A stretch of DNA of 64,000 nucleotides from a virus. Its lineage: Duplodnaviria; Caudoviricetes. Under the pieces are notes generated by a model, which saw only the letters and a program-made list of their open reading frames with translations, was not told the origin of the DNA and did no database searches. Shown here one piece after another: positions 253 to 46,752 of this stretch. A program made the translations under genes and the position numbers. Every line of letters begins with the position of its first letter. Position 1 is the first letter of the stretch. The DNA is taken from IMG/VR virus record IMGVR_UViG_2703719303_000002, positions 1 through 64,000 of that record; one strand, 5' to 3'.

Positions 253-336
253 TGGTGCGAGAGACGGGACTTGAACCCGTACGTCAATGACACACGCCCC
301 TCAAACGTGCCTGTCTGCCGATTCCAGCACTCTCGC
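253..336 (-). tRNA. tRNA-Leu (GAG)
   Basis: GCGAGAG acceptor stem, anticodon arm CACGT-TTGAGGG-GCGTG, long variable arm, GGTTCAAGTCC T-loop, encoded CCA. Confidence 0.97.
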
Positions 337-348
337 AAAACAATATTT

Positions 349-377
349 ATTTTATATTATAATCTGCATTTTGTCAA
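349..377 (-). promoter_or_regulatory. sigmaA promoter of tRNA-Leu, overlapping the last codons of the integrase ORF
   Basis: TTGACA(377-372)-N17-TAAAAT(354-349), 12 nt upstream of the tRNA. Confidence 0.8.
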
Positions 378-2067
378 GATTATATATTTTACAAAACTCA
401 TTTAATATGCTAATCACCGAGTAGTCGCCCTCACAACTGGACTGCTCCTCTATGACAGTAAAAGTAGATTTTAGTTCTGAATGTAATTTGAAAGGAGTGT
501 TTACTCTTATATCTAATTCTAATTCCCCTGTACAAGATTGATGGACTATTATTTTATCTACTAACATTTGTAAATCTGCACTAACTAAGTCCTTTTCTTC
601 GATTATTTTATCTATTATTTCCTTGCTTTTCAATAGTCCTGCTTTTGCATTTTTACTTATTTTCTTTACCTCTTGAAAAGTATCTATTTGATTTTCTAGT
701 ATATCAATTTTTTCTTTTGTTTCTTGTGTCAACTCTTGAAACAATTCTTCATTTATAAGTTGTTTTGCTAATTGCTTTGCGTAAGCCTTAACCTCGGTTT
801 TTAAAGAAAAAATTTCTCTTTGAATCTTATCTATAGATTTATCATAATTTCTTTTTTTACTATTCCACTTTGTTATAAATTTATCTGCTCGATTTAAATT
901 TTCTTCACATGTTTCTTTTAATCTCTCTAAGAATCCACATAAGATATTATCTAATTCTTCTTCCCTTATTCTATGTGGTGTACATACTGTTTTCCCAAAT
1001 CTGTGATATGCATTACAAATATATTCAATGCGTTCTATTCCATTCCATTTTCTTTTTTTAGCAACAAATCCACTACCACAATCCTTACATATAAGAAGTC
1101 CTGCGTACTTATGTATTTTGCTATTACCTGAAGCCCTAACGTGACCTCTTGTTCTATTTTTCTTAATAGCTTTTGTTTTTTCCCAAACTTCTTCATCTAT
1201 TATAGGCGGGTAAAAATTTTCATGTATTATTTGTTCATCCTTAGGTATTAAACCCCTTGTTTTATAAATAACGCTTCTTGTCGTAGTATGACATTTAAGT
1301 GTTCCAATATAAGCTTCATTTGAAAGTATTCTTGCTATTGTTCTATCACTCCAGATATCTTGTCCGATCCACTTCTTTCCTGCGTGATATACTTTTCCAG
1401 ATTTCTGAAACTGATGCCAAGATGGTGTGTGAACTTTTTCTTCTGTTAACTGTTGTGCTATTTTTTTATACCCAAATCCACCTATATATAATGAAAAGAT
1501 TTTTTTGACAACACCTGCGCATTCTTCATCAATCTCTATTTTATTAGTCTGATTATTTTTTTCATATCCAAATGGTGGTACTATAACTAATCCCTCCTTT
1601 TGCTTTTGGTGAAACGCTGCTCTGATTTTTCTACTTATATCTTTAGCATACTGTTCATTAAGTATTTGTTTGAACCCTATTAGTATATCATTATTTTCAT
1701 CCATATTATCAAGATTTTCAGCAATAGATATAACTTTAATCTTTTTAGATCTTAATTCTTCCATAAATAAAGCAGAATAAGCTTTGTGTCTACCTATACG
1801 AGATAAATCCTTTACAAGTAAAATATCTATATTGCCATTTTCAATAACTTCTTTTAATTCATTTAAACCTTCTCTATCAAAGGTCATTCCAGAGACATTG
1901 TCGTCTTCAAATATCTTAACTAATATATACCCATTGTTCTTTGCATATGTTCTAATAATTTGCTTTTGATTTTCTAAGGATGCTTGTTCCTTATCTTCAT
2001 CTCTACTTAATCTTACGTAACCATATACCTTTTTTAAGTTTTCTTTTTTCTCTATTATTTTTTCCAT
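352..2067 (-). CDS. Large serine recombinase (prophage integrase)
   Basis: YVRLS catalytic motif, KDLSRIGR, recombinase domain (PPFGY..ILSNEAYIG), Zn ribbon CKDC..YIC..C, coiled coil. Confidence 0.95.
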   Translation of the reverse strand: MEKIIEKKENLKKVYGYVRLSRDEDKEQASLENQKQIIRTYAKNNGYILVKIFEDDNVSGMTFDREGLNELKEVIENGNIDILLVKDLSRIGRHKAYSALFMEELRSKKIKVISIAENLDNMDENNDILIGFKQILNEQYAKDISRKIRAAFHQKQKEGLVIVPPFGYEKNNQTNKIEIDEECAGVVKKIFSLYIGGFGYKKIAQQLTEEKVHTPSWHQFQKSGKVYHAGKKWIGQDIWSDRTIARILSNEAYIGTLKCHTTTRSVIYKTRGLIPKDEQIIHENFYPPIIDEEVWEKTKAIKKNRTRGHVRASGNSKIHKYAGLLICKDCGSGFVAKKRKWNGIERIEYICNAYHRFGKTVCTPHRIREEELDNILCGFLERLKETCEENLNRADKFITKWNSKKRNYDKSIDKIQREIFSLKTEVKAYAKQLAKQLINEELFQELTQETKEKIDILENQIDTFQEVKKISKNAKAGLLKSKEIIDKIIEEKDLVSADLQMLVDKIIVHQSCTGELELDIRVNTPFKLHSELKSTFTVIEEQSSCEGDYSVISILNEFCKIYNLDKMQIII

Positions 2068-11104: not shown

Positions 11105-12252
11105 TAACGCTCACTCCTTTCAATTTCTTCTTCAAGTAGTATTAACACTAATTTTTTTATTACCCTATTGATTGAGAAATTACCTCTATTTATATCTTGA
11201 AAAAGACACTTTCGTGATACATTTCCCATCTTAATAATAATTACGTTCTTTTTTCTATCTACAGATATTTTCAAGTCTTTTATGTTAAATAAATTATTTA
11301 AAGATGTTTTTATTTTTTCTTCTTTTCTTTCTTCTTTTTTATAGTTTTCATTTAACTCTTCAATAGCCACATTTATATTTTTTATTACTTCTTTAGCATG
11401 TTCAATAGTTTCTGCATCATATGAAAAAAACATTTTATCACCCTTATCGTCTGTTCCCTTTAAATACAAATTATGCTCTGACATATAAGGAGAATCTATA
11501 CTTTTTAAATTAATACCATTGGTGGCTTTGAATCTAAAACTTCCTCTTTTAATAATCTCCTCATCTTGGTAAAGTATCCTTCCAATAATTAAATTACTCA
11601 TTTGTCTTAACTCTACTTTTAAAACAACACTTTGTTTAGCTTGAGAATTATTAAAAAGTTTTGCTTCTACAAAACCATACTTTTCTCCTTGAGCGATATC
11701 AGAAAAAGATTTAAACTTCTCTTTATATCCTAAATACAAATTGTTAAATTTACCATTTAGACTTGATCCTTTAAACCCATTTATAAAAGCTTCATTTTTA
11801 ATATTTTTTATAATAAAATTCTTCCCACATATGATATCTATTACATCTCCCACTCTAAATATTTCTCCTTGATTTTTAAATGCGTAATCCCCAATATATC
11901 CATAAAAGCTTTCATCTTTTTTATATTTAAGTTCTCCTCGAAAAAGAAACACTTGAATACAATTATCAAAATAAATATCTCCATCTTTTAAATCTTTATA
12001 ACTTTTAACAATTTTCCAATTATTAAAGTTTTCCTCAAGAATATCTTCTATTGTAGATGCTTCCCTCCCCATAATAAATGGATAACTACAAACACTCTTA
12101 TTCTCAACAAATATAGATATTCTATTCCCAATTTTTATTACATCTCCAATATGAAAAACTCCTTTAGGTGTTTTTATTTCTTTCCCTATCTCTCCAAAGC
12201 AACTACCACTTCTATAATATAACTTTCCTAACATAATACATTTCTCCTTCAT
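11104..12252 (-). CDS. Hypothetical protein with internal repeat (true start may be the second Met)
   Basis: 382 aa; duplicated G..IG....G..F.(I/V)GDVI unit; AAGGAG lies inside the first codons. Confidence 0.7.
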   Translation of the reverse strand: MKEKCIMLGKLYYRSGSCFGEIGKEIKTPKGVFHIGDVIKIGNRISIFVENKSVCSYPFIMGREASTIEDILEENFNNWKIVKSYKDLKDGDIYFDNCIQVFLFRGELKYKKDESFYGYIGDYAFKNQGEIFRVGDVIDIICGKNFIIKNIKNEAFINGFKGSSLNGKFNNLYLGYKEKFKSFSDIAQGEKYGFVEAKLFNNSQAKQSVVLKVELRQMSNLIIGRILYQDEEIIKRGSFRFKATNGINLKSIDSPYMSEHNLYLKGTDDKGDKMFFSYDAETIEHAKEVIKNINVAIEELNENYKKEERKEEKIKTSLNNLFNIKDLKISVDRKKNVIIIKMGNVSRKCLFQDINRGNFSINRVIKKLVLILLEEEIERSER

Positions 12253-12340
12253 ATACTAATTGTTATTAGTATATTGAATTTTTTTATTCTTTTAACATTT
12301 AGCTATCCTAATATAATAAGGACTACTCTCTATTTACACC

Positions 12341-12508
12341 TCACTTTCTTTTGAAGAACTCCACTTCTTTATAAGAGTATCCACAAAGCAACCAGAGAAA
12401 TCCTACTCCAAACCTGTTTGGGTGCCATATTCCTAAAAAAGATAATATAGCCATTAAGCAACAAATTATTACTCCAACAATATCTAATTTTTTAATACTA
12501 ATCACCAC
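12341..12508 (-). CDS. 55-aa membrane protein, first gene after the operator-containing promoter at 12526-12554
   Basis: GTG start after GAGGTG; two hydrophobic segments (IVGVIICCLMAILSFLGIW; FGVGFLWLLCGY). Confidence 0.55.
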   Translation of the reverse strand: MVISIKKLDIVGVIICCLMAILSFLGIWHPNRFGVGFLWLLCGYSYKEVEFFKRK

Positions 12509-12525
12509 CTTTTCACCTCACAGTT

Positions 12526-12554
12526 ATATTACCATACTAATTGTCATAAGTCAA
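12526..12554 (-). promoter_or_regulatory. Promoter with 18-bp operator in spacer
   Basis: TTGACT-N17-TAATAT with ACTTATGACAATTAGTAT spanning the -35 and spacer. Confidence 0.75.
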
Positions 12555-12660
12555 TATAGTATCAATAATAAAGATAAATGAGATATCTACTTTGTATTTC
12601 TTATAAGATAAAAACAGCATAAACTTATACATACAAGCTATACTTTCCCCATTAGATATT

Positions 12661-12716
12661 AAAATAGTGTTGAAATTAAGAGAGCTTATAAGTCTTCTTA
12701 ATTCCAACACTATTTT
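12661..12716. terminator. Long hairpin after RRNPP peptide gene
   Basis: AAAATAGTGTTGaAATTAAGA / TCTTAATTcCAACACTATTTT. Confidence 0.8.
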
Positions 12717-12736
12717 ACCTTATTACTTTATATCTC

Positions 12737-12862
12737 TTACCATGGTGCATCAGGAAACATTGATAATATTGATATTCCACCTTTAGTTGTTACCAAAACA
12801 CCTATTACTAATGTTAAAACTAGCATTGATAAAAACTTTTTGTGCTTTTTTAAAAAGAACAT
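12737..12862 (-). CDS. RRNPP signalling pre-peptide (41 aa)
   Basis: MFFLKKHKKFLSMLVLTLVIGVLVTTKGGISILSMFPDAPW: basic N-terminus, hydrophobic core, Pro/Trp C-terminal tail; RBS GGGGAG; 11 nt after receptor stop. Confidence 0.88.
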   Translation of the reverse strand: MFFLKKHKKFLSMLVLTLVIGVLVTTKGGISILSMFPDAPW

Positions 12863-12873
12863 ATCTACTCCCC

Positions 12874-14178
12874 CTATGAAATTCTTTTATTAAAATTATA
12901 TAATTCTTTAAGCGTTTGTATGTCTTCTGCTTCTAAATAAAATTCTATCAGTTTACATTCGAGATTTCTAGATATTTTTTTCTCCCTTCCACAGATTACA
13001 AAAAACTCATCCTTCATTTTTGATATACTTTTTTCATCATTTAGTGAAATATATATATCTATTAAATCTGAAAGTATATCTTTTATCAAAGAGTTACGAT
13101 TGAATTTTTTAGCATAATTTAAAGCTATATAATAAAATTTTTCTGCCTTTTTTGTTTCATTCAGTTTTGAATGCATTCTTCCTACTTCACAATAAGTATT
13201 TGGTAAATACTTATTGTTTTGGTTCAAATTATTTATGTATTCATCTACAATATTTAAAACTTCTTTTGCCTTTTCCTTATTGTTAAGTTCCATATGAATA
13301 TAAATTGAATTAATTAAAGCCACTAAATAGCTTTGACAGTTATCCTTATTTATATTATTGATTATTCTTTCATTTAAATCTAGACTTTCAGCATACCTCT
13401 CAAGTTCTCCAAAACAAACAACTTTTTGATTCATGACAGCATAATACCTATCCATACCTATTCTCTGAACTTTTTTTTCAATCTTTTCTAATCTTTTTAA
13501 GGCTTTATCATATTCTTTAAGCTTAATGTAACATAACGCACTATTATACATGAAAATACAATAATATTCTTCATTTATGTTTTTAAAGTTATTTATTGCA
13601 AAGTCACAGCACTTTATGTTCTCATCATATTTGTCCATATAAAAATACACCATGGACAATTTTCGTAAAATAGATATAAGATTATCACTATAAATAGTAT
13701 TATCCATCAATGCTTTGGCTTTTTCGTAATACATACAACTATTATGTAAGTCATTCGTATTAAAAAAGTAATCTCCAGCTAATTCAAAAATAATAATTTT
13801 TTTATCAATTATATTCCAATTTACGGTGAAGTTTTCGACTTCATCTAATTTATTTTGAAACATTCCATCCTTATAAACACTTAAATCCTTAAGTTCTGTT
13901 ATATATCTATCAAGTATTTTATTAGCTTGTGATTCCTCATCCTCTAATAAATACTCTATATCCTCATCAGTCTCTATATCCCGATTGTTACATATTCCCT
14001 GTAAATTTTTAAACATAATTTCAGCTGCATGTCTAGTTAGTCTTGCCTTTCCATGTTCTATCTGGCTTATAAGGTTTCTTGTTATTTCATTTCCCGCTAG
14101 ATCATCTTGATTTAATTTATATTTCTCTCTTAGTTTTTTTAACTTCACACCTGTAGGTAATATCTCATAGACACACAT
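12874..14178 (-). CDS. RRNPP-family peptide receptor (XRE HTH + TPRs)
   Basis: N-terminal LKKLREKYKLNQDDLAG..ISQIEHG HTH; TPR-like helical repeats; adjacent pre-peptide. Confidence 0.9.
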   Translation of the reverse strand: MCVYEILPTGVKLKKLREKYKLNQDDLAGNEITRNLISQIEHGKARLTRHAAEIMFKNLQGICNNRDIETDEDIEYLLEDEESQANKILDRYITELKDLSVYKDGMFQNKLDEVENFTVNWNIIDKKIIIFELAGDYFFNTNDLHNSCMYYEKAKALMDNTIYSDNLISILRKLSMVYFYMDKYDENIKCCDFAINNFKNINEEYYCIFMYNSALCYIKLKEYDKALKRLEKIEKKVQRIGMDRYYAVMNQKVVCFGELERYAESLDLNERIINNINKDNCQSYLVALINSIYIHMELNNKEKAKEVLNIVDEYINNLNQNNKYLPNTYCEVGRMHSKLNETKKAEKFYYIALNYAKKFNRNSLIKDILSDLIDIYISLNDEKSISKMKDEFFVICGREKKISRNLECKLIEFYLEAEDIQTLKELYNFNKRIS

Positions 14179-14219
14179 ATGACAAAACTCTCCTTACAGT
14201 AATAAATTTTATTTACTAT

Positions 14220-14248
14220 ATAATAGCATCATATGGAATTAATGTCAA
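14220..14248 (-). promoter_or_regulatory. sigmaA promoter of RRNPP cassette (no phage operator)
   Basis: TTGACA-N17-TATTAT with extended TG. Confidence 0.75.
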
Positions 14249-14251
14249 ACT

Positions 14252-14298
14252 AAAAAAAATAGCTCACTATTTCTTCTATATGGTAGTGAGCTATTTTT
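14252..14298 (-). terminator. Terminator insulating RRNPP cassette
   Basis: AAAAATAGCTCACTA / TAGTGAGCTATTTTT. Confidence 0.8.
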
Positions 14299-14507
14299 CT
14301 AACATTTTTACTATTTTAATTTATTTATATTGTTCATCTCTATTGAGATTCTCCTGATACTTTATATCTAATTTACTTCTTTTTAAGTATATACCTTCAC
14401 TATAGAAGTTTCTGAAACTTTAACATTTGAAAATATTATACTAACCTTTATCCTCAGAAAATACATGTTTATTTTTTATATTTATAATCAATCTTCTATA
14501 TATTTAT

Positions 14508-14873
14508 CTATTTTATTAACATGCTACTTAAAAATATAATATAGAACATATATCCATAATAAACAATATCTAATATTGTAAAGGTAATATTCACCAAGCT
14601 TAATTTTGAATATTTATCTATTTTTATCTTAAGCTTTGCTCTATCTTCCAAGTTATTGAGGTCTATTTTTCTTTTGTTTTTAGTAGATTTTATTATAGTA
14701 AATGAAATTGTAATAATAAATATACATATCATTATAAGTGTTAGATATTTGTATCTGTCATAATTTAATTCATTGATATAATATCCGATTTCAACAATTA
14801 TATCTATTGTGACAAGAATAAGTCCCAACAGTCCTATAAGAGAACCTTTTATTAAATTCTCTTTTTCTATCAT
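14508..14873 (-). CDS. Membrane protein (about 3 TM)
   Basis: Three hydrophobic segments. Confidence 0.6.
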   Translation of the reverse strand: MIEKENLIKGSLIGLLGLILVTIDIIVEIGYYINELNYDRYKYLTLIMICIFIITISFTIIKSTKNKRKIDLNNLEDRAKLKIKIDKYSKLSLVNITFTILDIVYYGYMFYIIFLSSMLIK

Positions 14874-15154
14874 TCTTGATCTTTTTCGTAAGTATTTAAA
14901 ATCTTGTTTCTAGATAGAAAAAACAAATATTCAACTAAACTTCCTTTGAATAAATGAATTAAAGACAGTACTAAGAAAATATTGTTAATAATTTCAACAT
15001 AAATTTACCTCATTTGCATTATTTTATTTTCTGTAAAAATCTCCTTATTGCTATGACAAAGTTCTAAATCCATATTGCTTGTCCTATTATCTTTTTTACA
15101 AAGATATTCATATATTAGATCGTTAAAATATTTCTTGAAAATATATCCTTTTCC

Positions 15155-15760
15155 CTATTTAATTACTACTTTTTCTTGTGATTTCTGAATTTCTATTTTA
15201 CCTGTTACATCTTCACCAGTTTCTTTGTTATAAACTCTGCCATCAATTATTTCTAACTTAGTTTTTAAGTTTTTCCAATTTAAAGTTTTTACTGTCTGTT
15301 CTTCAATAAATGAGGGAAATGTTTTAAGCAAATCTTCATTAAGATCAGGTTTTATAAGTGTTTCCTGTGGTATTTTTATTTGCACTGTACCTGATAAAAA
15401 TTTCAAGCTATATTGAGTTTTTGTTTTCTTCTTATTTTTATCTGACATTACTGCTTGTTTTAGATTAAAAGCAATCCATTTCTTTTGTTTCTCTAGTTTA
15501 GAAATCTGGCTATTTAATTTTAAATCTAAATTATCTTTTTTCTCTTTATAAATAGACTTAAACCTTTCTTGCTGCTCTTCTAACTCTTTATATTTTTCAA
15601 TAGCATCATCTATGCTACCATCAGAATAAAATGCTAGTTTTTTAACTTCTTCAGCATCTTTTTTCTCCTCATCTGTAATAAATAGAGAATTAAAAAAATC
15701 CTCTATACTATTTTTATTGTTTTTATCTATCATTTGGTTTTTTTCTTTATTTTCTGACAT
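15155..15760 (-). CDS. Mu Gam-like host-nuclease inhibitor
   Basis: Coiled-coil N-terminus then KKKTKTQYSLKFLSGTVQIK..LNWKNLK. Confidence 0.7.
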   Translation of the reverse strand: MSENKEKNQMIDKNNKNSIEDFFNSLFITDEEKKDAEEVKKLAFYSDGSIDDAIEKYKELEEQQERFKSIYKEKKDNLDLKLNSQISKLEKQKKWIAFNLKQAVMSDKNKKKTKTQYSLKFLSGTVQIKIPQETLIKPDLNEDLLKTFPSFIEEQTVKTLNWKNLKTKLEIIDGRVYNKETGEDVTGKIEIQKSQEKVVIK

Positions 15761-42440: not shown

Positions 42441-42917
42441 TTAAAATAAAGCGGATACCTCTCTATTCGTTGTAAATGTATATAAATAACACTTATTTAT
42501 TATCTCTTTATTAGGGATAATACCCATTTCTATTTTTCTTTCATAATAATCATATCTCTTTTTTTCATCTTCTGTAAAAACAGCCATTTTTGCTAATTCC
42601 AAAATTTCTTCTATTGCACTTTTACAAAATTCAATGTCTTTTGAATCTTGTAAATTAACATTTATGGGATTGCTTATCTTTTCATTCTGCTTTTCCCCAT
42701 ACTGATATATTCCTACTTGCCAATCCCATTCGTTTATATAAAGAACAACATACCCATAAGAGATAGGTATCATATAAAACCTATCTCCATCTATATTCTC
42801 TCCTTTAGATAAGATATACTCTTTAACCTTTTTAAATAAGTCTAATTTTGCCTTTGCTTTAGTTTCATTTTTCATTTTATTATCCCCCTCTATAACTACT
42901 TTAATTTTGTTAACCAT
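42441..42917 (-). CDS. Hypothetical protein
   Basis: ORF; likely start at internal Met after GAGGGGG. Confidence 0.65.
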   Translation of the reverse strand: MVNKIKVVIEGDNKMKNETKAKAKLDLFKKVKEYILSKGENIDGDRFYMIPISYGYVVLYINEWDWQVGIYQYGEKQNEKISNPINVNLQDSKDIEFCKSAIEEILELAKMAVFTEDEKKRYDYYERKIEMGIIPNKEIINKCYLYTFTTNREVSALF

Positions 42918-43765
42918 TTAATAGAGTCTGCTGTTGCATAGCCATAAGCAGCAGCAACAACTTCAATAGATACTCCCTTTTTTAGTAGAAATAACATCTT
43001 TGACATTCTAACAATTCTTAAATCTACTTTCTCTAAGTTTATGTTTATTTTCCTAAATTCGTCTTTATATTCCTGCTTAGTTTTAGAAAAAATATTTCTT
43101 ATTCCTTTCACTTTACCATCAGTACGACATCCTATTAATAGTGCCTTTATAACATAAGGACATTCTTTATAATCTATTGTATATACTCTCCCATCCTTCC
43201 CCATCTTCTCCTTTCCCTTTTCATTCTCTATATTATGAAGATCTTTTATAATATCTTTATCTTCTATAATATATTCTTTATTTTTTGTTTTTAATAAAGC
43301 TTTTTTATTCAAAAAAGAAATATCTTGCATTTTTAAATTTTGTATTTCATCAGGTTTCAATCCCTCCCAAGATAATTCAATAACTAATCTATCCCTTATA
43401 CATTGCACAACACCACACATATCTTTATATTGTTTATATGAAATTAAAGTTTCCTTAACTTCATCCTTTTTTACATATCTTGATAAATCTGTAACAGGAA
43501 AATTTCCTATAGTTATATTTTCTTCGTATGCAACATAAGCAGCAAACTGTCTGAGAACTAATAAAACTGAATTAACTCCTCTAGGTGTTGATGGTCTTAC
43601 AATATCCATTAACATTCCTACTTCTTTTCCATTCTTTTGTTCCCACTCCATCAAACCTTTTCCCGTTTTTTCTTCTACTTCTATAATAGTCTTTAGAATT
43701 CTTTTGGAAGCTTTTGGGTAAAATTGCGTAAATAAATTATAATAGTATTTACTCGTGTTCTTCAT
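42896..43765 (-). CDS. Degenerate tyrosine-recombinase-fold protein, MrpR(YopR)-like master repressor candidate
   Basis: RDRLVIELSWEGLKPDEIQNL resembles box I with R->K; LRIVRMS replaces HxxR; no LLGH...Y box. Confidence 0.65.
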   Translation of the reverse strand: MKNTSKYYYNLFTQFYPKASKRILKTIIEVEEKTGKGLMEWEQKNGKEVGMLMDIVRPSTPRGVNSVLLVLRQFAAYVAYEENITIGNFPVTDLSRYVKKDEVKETLISYKQYKDMCGVVQCIRDRLVIELSWEGLKPDEIQNLKMQDISFLNKKALLKTKNKEYIIEDKDIIKDLHNIENEKGKEKMGKDGRVYTIDYKECPYVIKALLIGCRTDGKVKGIRNIFSKTKQEYKDEFRKININLEKVDLRIVRMSKMLFLLKKGVSIEVVAAAYGYATADSIKWLTKLK

Positions 43766-44306
43766 CTTTACTTACTCCTTTCTTAATGATGTAAAAGGAC
43801 TTAGGAATAATACCCAATTCCTCTATAACAATAGCCTTTTTGTACTTTTTAACAGCTCCTGATGATGTCATATAGCGCACAAAAAGTTCATCAATTTCCT
43901 CATCTTCAACTACCACTAACTCTTTATTAACTGTAATAGAAAGAAGCCCTTTTAATCTATTGTTATCTTCAGCAGCCTTTTGTAATGCATTCTTTAAGCT
44001 TTGTATATCTTCATCCTTTTTTTGATTTGATCTTTTAAGTTTACTTAATTCTATCTTTAAAACATCCGCATTTGTATCGTTATCAACCTTATTTTTATTT
44101 TTTAAATCCTCTTTAAATAAAATATTCTTAAATTCTTCTTGATCCTTTTCTGTTTCAAGAATACTATAGTCTCCCTCTAGCATTTTTTCTATCTCTTTTG
44201 AAATAGATATGGGAGATAATAAAAATCTCTTCTTTAGAAATGCGGAAATTTCTAGTTCTTTACCTTTCAAAATTTGATTATCTATATTTAAATTCATTTT
44301 TTTCAC
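43749..44306 (-). CDS. Coiled-coil hypothetical protein, first gene of repressor operon
   Basis: ORF; central heptad repeats. Confidence 0.65.
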   Translation of the reverse strand: MKKMNLNIDNQILKGKELEISAFLKKRFLLSPISISKEIEKMLEGDYSILETEKDQEEFKNILFKEDLKNKNKVDNDTNADVLKIELSKLKRSNQKKDEDIQSLKNALQKAAEDNNRLKGLLSITVNKELVVVEDEEIDELFVRYMTSSGAVKKYKKAIVIEELGIIPKSFYIIKKGVSKDEEHE

Positions 44307-44317
44307 CTCACAAAATC

Positions 44318-44366
44318 AATTATAGCAATTCGTATGAAAAAAGTCAATATACTAATTGCTATAAAT
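44318..44366 (-). promoter_or_regulatory. Repressor-operon promoter flanked by two inverted operator copies
   Basis: TTGACT(44347-44342)-N17-TATAAT(44324-44319) with extended TG; copies at 44349-44366 and 44318-44335 in opposite orientations. Confidence 0.75.
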
Positions 44367-44373
44367 TAAAAAT

Positions 44374-45273
44374 TCAAAATATCTTATTAAGAGGATTGGC
44401 TTCTACTGCATTTTTTAATTGCTCTTTAGAAACATCTGTGTATATTCTGGTTGTAGAAACATCTTCGTGTCCTAATAATTCTTGTAACTGAAATAAATCT
44501 ACTTCTCCACTTTGATATAATAGAGTTGCAAACGTATGTCTTAATATATGTACTAAAACATCATTGTCACCTTTAATTCCTGCATTGTACATGGCATTTC
44601 TGATAGCATTTTGAACAGTTCCTCGTGCTATTCTACCATTTCTTTCTGATAAAAATAGAGCTTTTGTCTTTAAATTTTTTGGTCTTTGTTTAATATATAA
44701 TTTAACAATCTTTTTTGCCTGATCTGTTAAATAAACTACTCTTTCTTTATTTTCTTTACCTATAATTCTTATTTCTTCTTCTAATATATTATCTACATTT
44801 AGGGATATGAGTTCTGATAATCTCATACCTGTTGATAAAAATATTATTATAATACACTTATCTCGAATAGTATTTCTGCTATTAACACTATTTATCAACC
44901 TTTTGCATTCTTCTATACTTAATGATTTTGGCAATCTTTTAGGAATCTTAGGTAAATCTCTTTTGTCTATCTTATCAAAAGGGTTATCTAATACAATTTT
45001 TTCTTGATCTAAATATTGAAAGAATAACTTTAAACTAATAATTTTTCTTCTAATTGTTGTTGCTGCTCTCCCATTTTTTATTAAGTAGTTAATGAATTTT
45101 TTTATCTCCCTATAATCTATATTAACAAAATCCTCATCTTTTGTTATCTGCCTTTTTTTGTTTTTCATATATCTAAACCATACTTTTAAATCATTTAAAT
45201 ATTGTTTTCTAGTTCCTTCAGACTTAACTAAAAGATTTTTTTCATACATTTCAAGTCTTTCTTCTACCTTCAT
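44374..45273 (-). CDS. Tyrosine recombinase (XerC/D-like, intact active site)
   Basis: TGMRLSEL, GKENKER, HILRHTFAT, LLGH..TTRIY. Confidence 0.93.
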   Translation of the reverse strand: MKVEERLEMYEKNLLVKSEGTRKQYLNDLKVWFRYMKNKKRQITKDEDFVNIDYREIKKFINYLIKNGRAATTIRRKIISLKLFFQYLDQEKIVLDNPFDKIDKRDLPKIPKRLPKSLSIEECKRLINSVNSRNTIRDKCIIIIFLSTGMRLSELISLNVDNILEEEIRIIGKENKERVVYLTDQAKKIVKLYIKQRPKNLKTKALFLSERNGRIARGTVQNAIRNAMYNAGIKGDNDVLVHILRHTFATLLYQSGEVDLFQLQELLGHEDVSTTRIYTDVSKEQLKNAVEANPLNKIF

Positions 45274-45422
45274 TTTCTTTTTCGCACCTCCAACTCTTTA
45301 TTTAAATTATTCTTTTCTTTAATCCATACTATAGAAGAAAAAACGTCTCTTAAAAATCTTATTACCTCTATTACAATCTCTAGTAGTATTTTTATTATTC
45401 CGAAAAACAAAAATACTCCCAT

Positions 45423-45710
45423 TTAAGCACACCTTACTTTCAGTGGAAGAAAGAATCTGTTATCATGCGATTCGATTTCTTTAAATAAGAACTTCAAATT
45501 TTTATGTTTACCATGGTGATGCATACCCACCCCTTGGCGTGTATTTTCATGATATAATACAATTCCTTCCTTCATCACCTGATTTCTTTTAATATACCAC
45601 GTATCTAATTTACTTTTTATCCTAATAAAATTCCCTATAAAATCATATTTAAAATTATATATTCTACATAAATTTTCTATTTCCTTTTCTTTATTATTCA
45701 ATACTGTCAC
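45423..45710 (-). CDS. Hypothetical protein
   Basis: ORF; LYHEN..H..IESHD. Confidence 0.65.
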   Translation of the reverse strand: MTVLNNKEKEIENLCRIYNFKYDFIGNFIRIKSKLDTWYIKRNQVMKEGIVLYHENTRQGVGMHHHGKHKNLKFLFKEIESHDNRFFLPLKVRCA

Positions 45711-46752
45711 CTTCTTTAAAAATCTCTTCTATTTTTTTGTTGATTTCTTCATCTTGATTAGAAAAATACTCGTTATAGTCTTTTTTAAGTTCCTCTAATC
45801 TAATCTTGATAGATTCTGATCTTGCCGAACCTGAACCAGCAGCAGAATTATATTTTTCACTTATAGAAGCTCTTCTTTTTCCACTGTAAAATTTTAATAA
45901 CCAACTTGCTAGTTCTTCTATAGTTTTATCTGATTTAATTACTATAGGTATTATTGTAAGTAAATGCGTTCTTGTAAGAATTCTTTTAGCTATCTTTTTA
46001 TGTTCTTTATCTTCTGTATTTATTGCTTTCCATATATCTAATATTTTACTATATGCTTTTTTTATCTCTTCTTTTTGTTGTTCTGTAAATTCTACATCTT
46101 GCATAAGCGGTCTTATTTTTTTAGTTTCAAAACTAGGGTTTTCTGTATATAACATTGCATACGTCTTTATTACAATATCTTCATTTGTATATTTATTTAC
46201 CTGCTTTAATGTTAGAGCATTTTTAAATATTTCATGATTACCTAATTCCCTTATTGCATCAAAACTTTTGGCTTTAACTCTTGTTAATTCTATTGCTGAT
46301 AAAGCTTTTCCATTGTTTAATCTATAAAACATTTCACTTACTTGATCATCTGATAAATCCAAAAAGAAATATACTGTTAAAGAGTAATCTTTTACTCTAT
46401 CTTGTAATTCCTCTGGTAATTCCTCAAAACTCATTCCATTTACATCAATTGATTCTCCATCTTCTAACTCAACTTCTTCTATTCCATCAAGTTTAAACTT
46501 TCCTTCTATAAATTCCTTAATTGCATGACAACGCTGTTTTCCATCCAACATATCATATGTTTTATCTTCATTTCTTGCTGCATAAAAAGCTGGAATAGGA
46601 TAATTCTGAAACATTGAATCTATAAGCAATATCTTTTTATCAGTTTTCCAACATAAACCACGTTGTACTGAATTGTCAAATCCAAGAGTACCCTTGTCCA
46701 TCATTTTTGCAATCTGTTTAGCAGTCCATTGTATATTTGATTTTTTTAACAT
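45694..46752 (-). CDS. DUF262 (ParB/GmrS-like DGQQR) protein
   Basis: QRGLCW, LIDS..YPIP, LDGKQR, FYRLNNG. Confidence 0.85.
   Translation of the reverse strand: MLKKSNIQWTAKQIAKMMDKGTLGFDNSVQRGLCWKTDKKILLIDSMFQNYPIPAFYAARNEDKTYDMLDGKQRCHAIKEFIEGKFKLDGIEEVELEDGESIDVNGMSFEELPEELQDRVKDYSLTVYFFLDLSDDQVSEMFYRLNNGKALSAIELTRVKAKSFDAIRELGNHEIFKNALTLKQVNKYTNEDIVIKTYAMLYTENPSFETKKIRPLMQDVEFTEQQKEEIKKAYSKILDIWKAINTEDKEHKKIAKRILTRTHLLTIIPIVIKSDKTIEELASWLLKFYSGKRRASISEKYNSAAGSGSARSESIKIRLEELKKDYNEYFSNQDEEINKKIEEIFKEGDSIE

Follow-up and report, generated by a model that had tools for sequence, protein, structure and literature searches.

What does a peptide signalling system of bacterial type do when it is carried inside a prophage? 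The question is raised by a two-gene cassette in a 64,000-nucleotide (nt) stretch of viral DNA, here called the window, which forms the first 64 kb of the 103,353-bp provirus IMGVR_UViG_2703719303_000002 (Duplodnaviria; Caudoviricetes) in the IMG/VR database. The cassette pairs qsrD, a gene for a receptor with helix-turn-helix (HTH) and tetratricopeptide repeat (TPR) domains, with qspD, a short open reading frame (ORF) for a pre-peptide with a predicted export signal. The original prediction, made from the letters of the window, described a self-contained unit of terminator, sigmaA promoter, HTH-TPR receptor, 41-aa pre-peptide and long hairpin, and all five parts were found at the places it had given, on the minus strand (Table 1).

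Here we report that this unit is the already known and named QssD system of Clostridium acetobutylicum ATCC 824, and is therefore not new, and that it sits as an insulated, self-promoted, moron-like passenger cassette in the early-gene arm of an approximately 100-kb prophage. We describe the evidence for this identity, a candidate operator that QsrD may share with its paralogues, and the settings in which relatives of the cassette are found. We then weigh what the system might control.

Identity of the cassette

The 4.3 kb around the cassette (window 11380-15678) are 100% identical to G003:C1:1356890-1361188, which lies on the 3,940,880-bp chromosome of host genome G003; qsrD itself corresponds, again at 100% DNA identity, to G003:C1:1358390-1359694, and the DNA polymerase gene of the prophage also has a 100% identical place in that genome. 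G003 holds exactly eight Qsr-type genes, six on the chromosome (one of them split by a stop) and two on a second contig, and the cassette of the window occupies the fourth of the eight paralogue positions. In ATCC 824 the Qsr loci have been listed as CA_C0186, 0324, 1043, 1214 and 2490, the frameshifted 3694/5, CA_P0040 and CA_P0149 (Kotte et al. 2020, PMC7376267). The QsrB and QsrE copies of G003 match, at 100% identity, database proteins labelled C. acetobutylicum, and the ORF behind the QsrB copy has the published QspB ending, TRSLLGAEPTWGWNISKLLF (Kotte et al. 2020, PMC7376267). On these sequence matches the cassette is the published QssD pair of ATCC 824, with qsrD as CA_C1214 (a locus tag assigned from gene order) and qspD as its partner. 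It had been suggested beforehand that, if the host were C. acetobutylicum, the locus might already be catalogued as a host quorum-sensing system, and this is indeed the case.

The literature treats the phage side of this locus sparingly. The words phage and prophage are never used by Kotte et al. (2020, PMC7376267), and in the text and supplementary tables of Bernard et al. (2021, 2023), of which the tables are possibly incomplete, we found neither QssD nor an explicit statement of a prophage location.

The receptor and its family

QsrD has both the TPR-type peptide-binding domain of the RRNPP(A) systems and the HTH DNA-binding domain of their regulator subclass. Its N-terminus matches Pfam HTH_19 (residues 12-71; 30.5 bits against a cut-off of 30.2), and the protein matches TPR_12 at 1.1e-11, with TPR_8 above its own cut-off. 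QsrD and QsrB are 40% identical across 98% of their length; the database protein P0045, which is 100% identical to the G003 copy at the QsrB position, shows this 40% identity over 98% of the query. The predicted recognition helix (T33-E41) is invariant across 22 family members.

An AlphaFold2 (AF2) model of QsrD, with a predicted local distance difference test score (pLDDT) of 91.9, consists of an HTH (helices 9-19, 24-28 and 34-41) followed by a long all-helical repeat array. Its top structural match is apo NprR (5dbk; Z 23.0, 316 residues aligned, about 12% identity), followed by RapI and RapJ (Z 22-23), with AimR at 18.2, and profile searches likewise recovered the TPR domains of NprR and Rap. 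Since large TPR proteins all score alike, the model supports the fold class and offers no reliable ranking of the RRNPP subfamilies.

About 90 members of the Qsr family are detectable (92 homologues), nearly all of them in the C. acetobutylicum/felsineum group and a few in related Clostridium species, and in a FastTree phylogeny QsrD is nested deep within the family. Its nearest relatives, at 62-64% identity, are encoded in a second C. acetobutylicum strain (locus L002) and in another Clostridium genome (L003). Two further loci recur below: a close Qsr/Qsp pair of C. felsineum (L032) and a pair in a second, unrelated provirus (L006).

The pre-peptide gene

The qspD ATG lies 11 nt past the qsrD stop and opens a frame of 41 codons, so that a small pre-peptide gene with an export signal adjoins the receptor gene, as it does in RRNPP(A) systems. 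QspD begins with a KKHKK N-region, continues with a 17-residue hydrophobic core and ends in LSMFPDAPW, with a leucine at -9, a proline at -5, a tryptophan at -1 and one acidic residue. It fits in each respect the Qsp pattern of 39-50 aa with a conserved Leu, Pro at -5 and C-terminal Trp at -1; these three residues are shared by all Qsp peptides, and a negative charge is found in QspB, QspD and QspE only, to which the QspD of the window conforms (Kotte et al. 2020, PMC7376267).

Eleven close homologues of the receptor were examined for a similar partner: the seven remaining host paralogues, three loci of other strains or species, and the one in the second provirus. A signal-peptide-like ORF was found in the same position downstream of the receptor gene in 11 out of 11, and the sole invariant columns in the alignment of the 11 Qsp sequences are L33, P37 and W41 (QspD numbering). 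Because the position and these residues are both kept, qspD is, by comparative sequence evidence, not a chance reading frame. More distant homologues (35-44% identity) are also followed by a small ORF for an exported peptide, with different tails. The signal proper is expected within the C-terminal 7-9 residues of QspD. The original prediction had pointed out that the peptide gene is missing from the ORF track, and this agrees with the published annotation, in which qspF (CA_C3693) is the sole annotated qsp gene of ATCC 824 (Kotte et al. 2020, PMC7376267) and which explains the omission.

Transcription signals and a candidate operator

The cassette is bounded on both sides by strong hairpins. 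The upstream one has a 17-bp stem ending in a U-run (-18.8 kcal/mol, z -6.62), and none of 200 shuffled sequences folded as well; the closing one has a stem of about 22 bp (-28.7 kcal/mol, z -7.12). In L002 and L032 the closing hairpin carries compensatory changes in its outer stem around a conserved core (GAATTAAG...CTTAATTC). We had considered this hairpin as a protein-binding palindrome and set that aside, the compensatory changes in the outer stem and the T-runs that follow being those of a terminator. The DNA is AT-rich, and promoter-like sequences in general are no commoner in it than expected (23 against 24.7); the qsrD promoter is the top such site within 12200-15200, and the homologous L002 and L032 cassettes share its -35, TG and -10 positions. 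That this promoter would be free of a phage operator, as had been proposed, holds for the repeated 16-bp box ACTAAYYGYYATAAGT of the prophage, of which there is no copy at 14179-14300.

Close to the promoter stands the inverted repeat GTAA-N10-TTAC. It recurs at the equivalent place before qsrF and qsrG and in L002, L003 and L032, giving six Qsr-family promoters with qsrD included, and five more distant homologues carry it further upstream. The spacer is exactly 10 in 11 of 11 GTAA/TTAC matches, in a search that allowed 8-12. The window contains one exact copy against 1.55 expected, and the whole provirus contains two, the second of which lies inside a late gene; with only these two, no second phage target is seen.

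These observations suggest a common Qsr operator, with autorepression, cross-talk between paralogues at the DNA level and specificity at the level of the peptide. As the recognition helix is invariant and the same box stands at other qsr promoters, QsrD most likely shares its DNA targets with the seven other Qsr regulators of the host and does not have a private phage target. The papers on the Qsr systems (Kotte 2020; Bernard 2021 and 2023) give no target site for the family; the candidate shared operator would provide a concrete DNA site for the family as a whole.

One of the seven genome-wide copies of the box with an all-A/T spacer (L038 1501-1518; G003:C1:3456452-3456469) is found between a TATAAT and the ribosome-binding site (RBS) of a gene for a 356-aa secreted protein, in the same layout as at the qsr promoters. 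This gene is a possible member of a Qsr regulon.

Relatives and mobility

The homologues of the cassette are not confined to prophages, a point on which a check had been proposed: the closest are found beside type III-A CRISPR-Cas or integrative and conjugative element (ICE) genes or on a plasmid-like contig, and one lies in another provirus. In the second C. acetobutylicum strain (L002 4436-11390) the Qsr/Qsp pair adjoins a type III-A (Csm) CRISPR-Cas operon, and in the Clostridium genome (L003 1-3656) it adjoins type III-A CRISPR-Cas together with ICE genes for a TraG-like coupling protein, a topoisomerase and an integrase. The C. felsineum pair (L032 1188-6092) is carried on a 13.8-kb Rep3 plasmid-like contig with an integrase. 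Directly after that pair come a sigma70-like gene, a BhlA holin and a 797-aa PG_binding/glycosyl-hydrolase (lysin-like) protein, an arrangement that looks like a peptide-controlled lysis or bacteriocin module. The second IMG/VR provirus (55 kb, CheckV 99%) encodes at L006 9977-11430 a Qsr-type receptor with 34% identity, together with a peptide of 43 aa whose tail is TLAFYPGRPW; this pair runs against the phage genes around it and is set between terminase/portal genes and a deoxynucleoside monophosphate (dNMP) kinase.

The homology to the cassette of the other strain (73% at the nt level) is limited to window 12602-14228, starting in the -10 region and running out some 60 nt beyond the closing hairpin. 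Given this limit and the varied settings of the relatives, the unit from promoter to terminator behaves, as far as its sequence can tell, as a portable module that was picked up by this phage. In searches of 50,697 phage records, a set that includes SPbeta-like phages but possibly not this provirus itself, neither blastn with the cassette nor tblastn with the receptor gave a match.

Directly after the closing hairpin lies a 31-codon ORF with an RBS (MYKFML...; 12537-12632, minus strand). Its leader and first codons share homology, ending at about 12602, with the beginning of a 54-aa membrane ORF that follows the cassette in L002; the 31-codon ORF is probably what is left of a third gene carried along with the cassette.

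The prophage setting

The genes on either side of the cassette are those of a large phage. Downstream of it are genes for a 382-aa protein of no known family, a guanylate kinase, a DNA methyltransferase, a DnaE-like polymerase (PHROG 405, E 2e-272), a resolvase, a sigma factor and a large serine integrase, and upstream are genes for a Mu Gam-like protein, a dUTPase and NrdD. Beyond 60 kb, on the other strand, follow structural genes, a tyrosine integrase and an endolysin. The 382-aa flanking protein has no relative in IMG/VR, and among 6 genomes of the genus the prophage polymerase has a match in the host genome alone. The tRNA-Leu gene and the serine recombinase at the edge of the record are likely the attachment end of the prophage, which is said to have been delimited as CAC1113-CAC1197 in the 2001 genome paper of Noelling and colleagues. 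Excision in ATCC 824 has been reported for another prophage, CA_C1867-1957.

The 16-bp box, which is oriented, has 24 copies in the window (sites 3024-63323) against 0.89 expected, mostly at gene starts, and looks like the operator of the prophage's master repressor. Copies flank the cassette, the nearest at 12255, 12536 and 16047, and others are found at, for example, 42423 and 44351. The genes at 42896-46752 form a cluster that resembles the yopM-R lysogeny operon of SPbeta. The cassette had been placed about 29 kb from a repressor cluster, and the start of this recombinase-like cluster at 42896 is consistent with that distance. In the 103-kb record qsrD is the only HTH-TPR gene, and there is no AimR-type gene.

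Table 1. Features of the QssD cassette and of its prophage setting (window coordinates)
Feature	Position	Strand	Basis or remark
Intrinsic terminator insulating the cassette from the upstream phage gene (14508-14873)	14253..14300	minus	RNA fold
SigmaA-type promoter of qsrD-qspD: TTGACA, 17 nt, TG-extended TATTAT	14220..14248	minus	11/12 matches
Candidate Qsr operator GTAA-N10-TTAC	14199..14216		Begins 4 nt past the -10 and spans the predicted start of transcription
RBS of qsrD, TAAGGAGAG	14188..14196	minus	Read from sequence; kept in all paralogue leaders
qsrD (CA_C1214), 434-aa cytoplasmic HTH-TPR receptor/regulator	12874..14178	minus	Pfam, sequence identity, AF2 model
RBS of qspD, AGGGGGAG	12868..12875	minus	Read from sequence; overlaps the qsrD stop codon; 5 nt before the ATG
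qspD, 41-aa pre-peptide MFFLKKHKKFLSMLVLTLVIGVLVTTKGGISILSMFPDAPW (export predicted)	12737..12862	minus	ORF, signal-like N-terminus, conserved residues
Long terminator hairpin closing the cassette	12660..12717	minus	RNA fold; kept in L002 and L032
tRNA-Leu (GAG) directly beside a 571-aa large serine recombinase	253-2067		Edge of the record
Weak integrase-like 289-aa protein	42896-43765		Pfam E 0.001
Intact tyrosine recombinase	44374-45273		
DUF262/GmrSD_N protein	45694-46752		

A proposed mechanism

As the cassette belongs to the Qsr/Qsp family, QsrD would be a cytoplasmic peptide-sensing transcription factor and QspD its exported pre-peptide, and we consider it very probable that the cassette is QssD and works by the generic mechanism of RRNPP-type systems. 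The individual steps are drawn from the experiments on QsrB/QspB and from the structures of NprR, Rap and PlcR. A bicistronic mRNA would give the cytoplasmic HTH-TPR protein QsrD and the 41-aa QspD, which would leave the cell by Sec and be cut down to roughly its last 7-9 residues, (L)SMFPDAPW. This short form would then be re-imported by an oligopeptide permease and bind in the TPR groove of QsrD, changing its DNA binding. By analogy with QsrB, binding most likely relieves repression: QsrB-mediated repression is relieved by AEPTWGW, a heptapeptide of QspB that covers the conserved P and W (Kotte et al. 2020, PMC7376267). QsrD probably binds GTAA-N10-TTAC over its own transcription start and would thereby repress itself.

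Several observations weigh against this reading or against parts of it. The exact repeat is absent from the leaders of five paralogues (qsrA, qsrB, qsrC, qsrE and qsrH), inspection by eye of the eight qsr leaders revealed no motif common to all, and conservation of the box where it does occur may be due in part to shared promoter ancestry. Genome-wide, copies with an all-A/T spacer are not clearly enriched (7 against 4 in the control), and a long form of the leader repeat, which has the qsrD and qsrF leaders as its two best matches, occurs 15 times in total against 19 for a reversed-pattern control; with these counts no Qsr regulon can be claimed. In the structural comparisons (Foldseek, VIA), LGN, MalT and APC subunits score near NprR and Rap against the QsrD model. 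The published peptide experiments concern QssB only, with QspB-derived peptides (Kotte et al. 2020, PMC7376267). Finally, a qsrD ClosTron mutant grew more slowly but made butanol at wild-type levels both early and late, with spores that were not noticeably altered (Kotte et al. 2020, PMC7376267), which speaks against a strong part for QsrD in making solvents or spores under those conditions. QssD could be redundant or idle in the laboratory, and redundancy among the eight systems could mask a role of QsrD in solvents or sporulation.

Possible outputs of the system

The original prediction offered two outputs, a lysis-lysogeny signal or a phage handle on host sporulation and solventogenesis, and neither is supported by what was found: the knockout is near wild type in solvents and spores, and nothing ties the cassette to the lysogeny cluster. 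We weighed both outputs, together with the absence of any; our estimates for these three alternatives and for the QssD identity with its generic mechanism overlap and need not add up to one.

A handle on the host is a tentative possibility. QsrD expressed in the lysogen would act at chromosomal Qsr operators, and the prophage would tune sporulation, solvents or other Qsr traits according to the density of lysogens. The invariance of the recognition helix, the presence of the box at the qsrF and qsrG promoters, and the cassette's own sigmaA promoter without the phage operator, by which it is expected to be on in the lysogen, are all consistent with this. The paralogues show what such traits could be, as QsrB affects solvent formation and sporulation and inactivation of qsrG lowers heat-resistant spore counts threefold (Kotte et al. 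2020, PMC7376267), and hijacking of this kind has been proposed by Bernard et al. for prophage-borne Qss-type systems. The wild-type butanol of the qsrD knockout and its lack of a noticeable endospore change speak against it, however, as does the neighbourhood of the cassette, whose genes have no Pfam family and include no spo0E, abrB or rap; the GTAA-N10-TTAC box through which the handle would work is itself hypothetical.

We think it unlikely that QssD is a functional counterpart of arbitrium with a host-type, NprR/Rap-like receptor, one that senses the density of carrying or recently infected cells and steers the lysis-lysogeny decision, or the induction, of the SPbeta-like prophage that extends from CA_C1113 to tRNA-Leu. 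If true, this would explain why the qsrD knockout lacks a solvent or spore phenotype; a mutant that only grows more slowly is what might be seen if the target were the phage. The cassette does lie inside a prophage whose control layout is SPbeta-like, with its multicopy operator and its cluster of DUF262, recombinase and integrase-like genes; the record has no AimR-type gene, qsrD being its only HTH-TPR gene; and the second, unrelated provirus also has a Qss-type pair. But the receptor is no relative of AimR, either in the tblastn search of the phage records or by structure, where AimR falls below NprR and Rap, and the peptide tail FPDAPW is unlike that of AimP. The cassette is moreover closed off by terminators on both sides and distant from the lysogeny cluster, with no aimX-like target behind it, and its candidate operator is found in the window only at its own promoter and once more in the provirus, inside the late gene. 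Its closest relatives live outside phages, and the sole prophage reported to excise in ATCC 824 is another one.

That QssD is an idle passenger, an intact and recently captured mobile module without consequential output in a prophage that may itself be inactive, would account for the minimal phenotype of the knockout, for the mobility of a module whose homology ends just outside both terminators and whose relatives are scattered among CRISPR/ICE genes, a plasmid-like contig and another provirus, and for the lack of any report that this prophage excises, but it is improbable, given that both ORFs, both RBSs, the promoter, the signature residues and the terminators are all intact and that the seven paralogous Qss systems kept in the same genome argue for selection.

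Comparison with known systems

In structure, NprR of the NprR-NprX system (Bacillus cereus group) is the best match to QsrD, and like the proposed QsrD it combines an HTH with a long TPR array that binds a re-imported peptide. NprR is also a Rap-like phosphatase partner, and the Qsr proteins are likened to it by fold class only.

The layout of the cassette had been likened both to arbitrium aimR-aimP and to the clostridial Qss systems. The second likeness stands, a clostridial Qss-type RRNPP pair being present inside a prophage; the first does not extend to kinship with AimR. The arbitrium system AimR-AimP-AimX of SPbeta and phi3T resembles QssD in that a phage-borne receptor gene is followed by one for a secreted pre-peptide, and the QssD prophage shares with SPbeta a repeated operator and a recombinase-like lysogeny cluster. 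However, QsrD has no sequence kinship to AimR and belongs to a different, NprR/Rap-like TPR subtype: the AimR family is absent from the Pfam, NCBIfam and PHROG matches of the receptor, and all of its sequence relatives are Qsr proteins. Where the AimP hexapeptide ends in G-G/A, the QspD tail is FPDAPW. Arbitrium has a downstream aimX beside the lysogeny operon, whereas qspD is followed by a strong terminator, after which the next promoter carries the general phage operator.

Prophage-borne Qsr/QssR systems identified with RRNPP_detector (Bernard et al., 2021 preprint; 2023, MBE) are of the same family and express the same idea, that prophages carry RRNPP systems of host type. Prophage-borne members of the Qsr family have thus been reported in general, and QsrG of ATCC 824 has been discussed in that light. 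QsrG and Qss5 of C. saccharoperbutylacetonicum stand next to spo0E- or abrB-like genes (Bernard et al.), unlike QssD, which has no such neighbour.

QssB, the only member of the family to have been dissected experimentally, has the same gene order as QssD and the conserved P and W in its active region. It differs in that QspB has a 7-residue C-terminal extension, with the active AEPTWGW internal, while QspD ends at the W, and in that QsrB is chromosomal and affects solvents and spores, which the qsrD mutant does not.

The closest comparison is with QssD itself as described in ATCC 824, one of QssA-H (PMC7376267): the locus is the same, the DNA identical, and the receptor of 434 aa and the Qsp of 41 aa agree. 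Nothing in the sequence differs; the published account makes no mention of a prophage, names no target and describes a mutant that is only slower-growing. In this model solvent producer QssD was thus studied as a system of the host, and it yielded next to no host phenotype. The cassette therefore adds nothing new in kind; its little-noted part is its phage setting, together with a promoter expected to be active in the lysogen, which points to prophage transcription, excision and cross-talk with the seven other Qsr regulators as the read-outs by which the role of QssD may be recognised.

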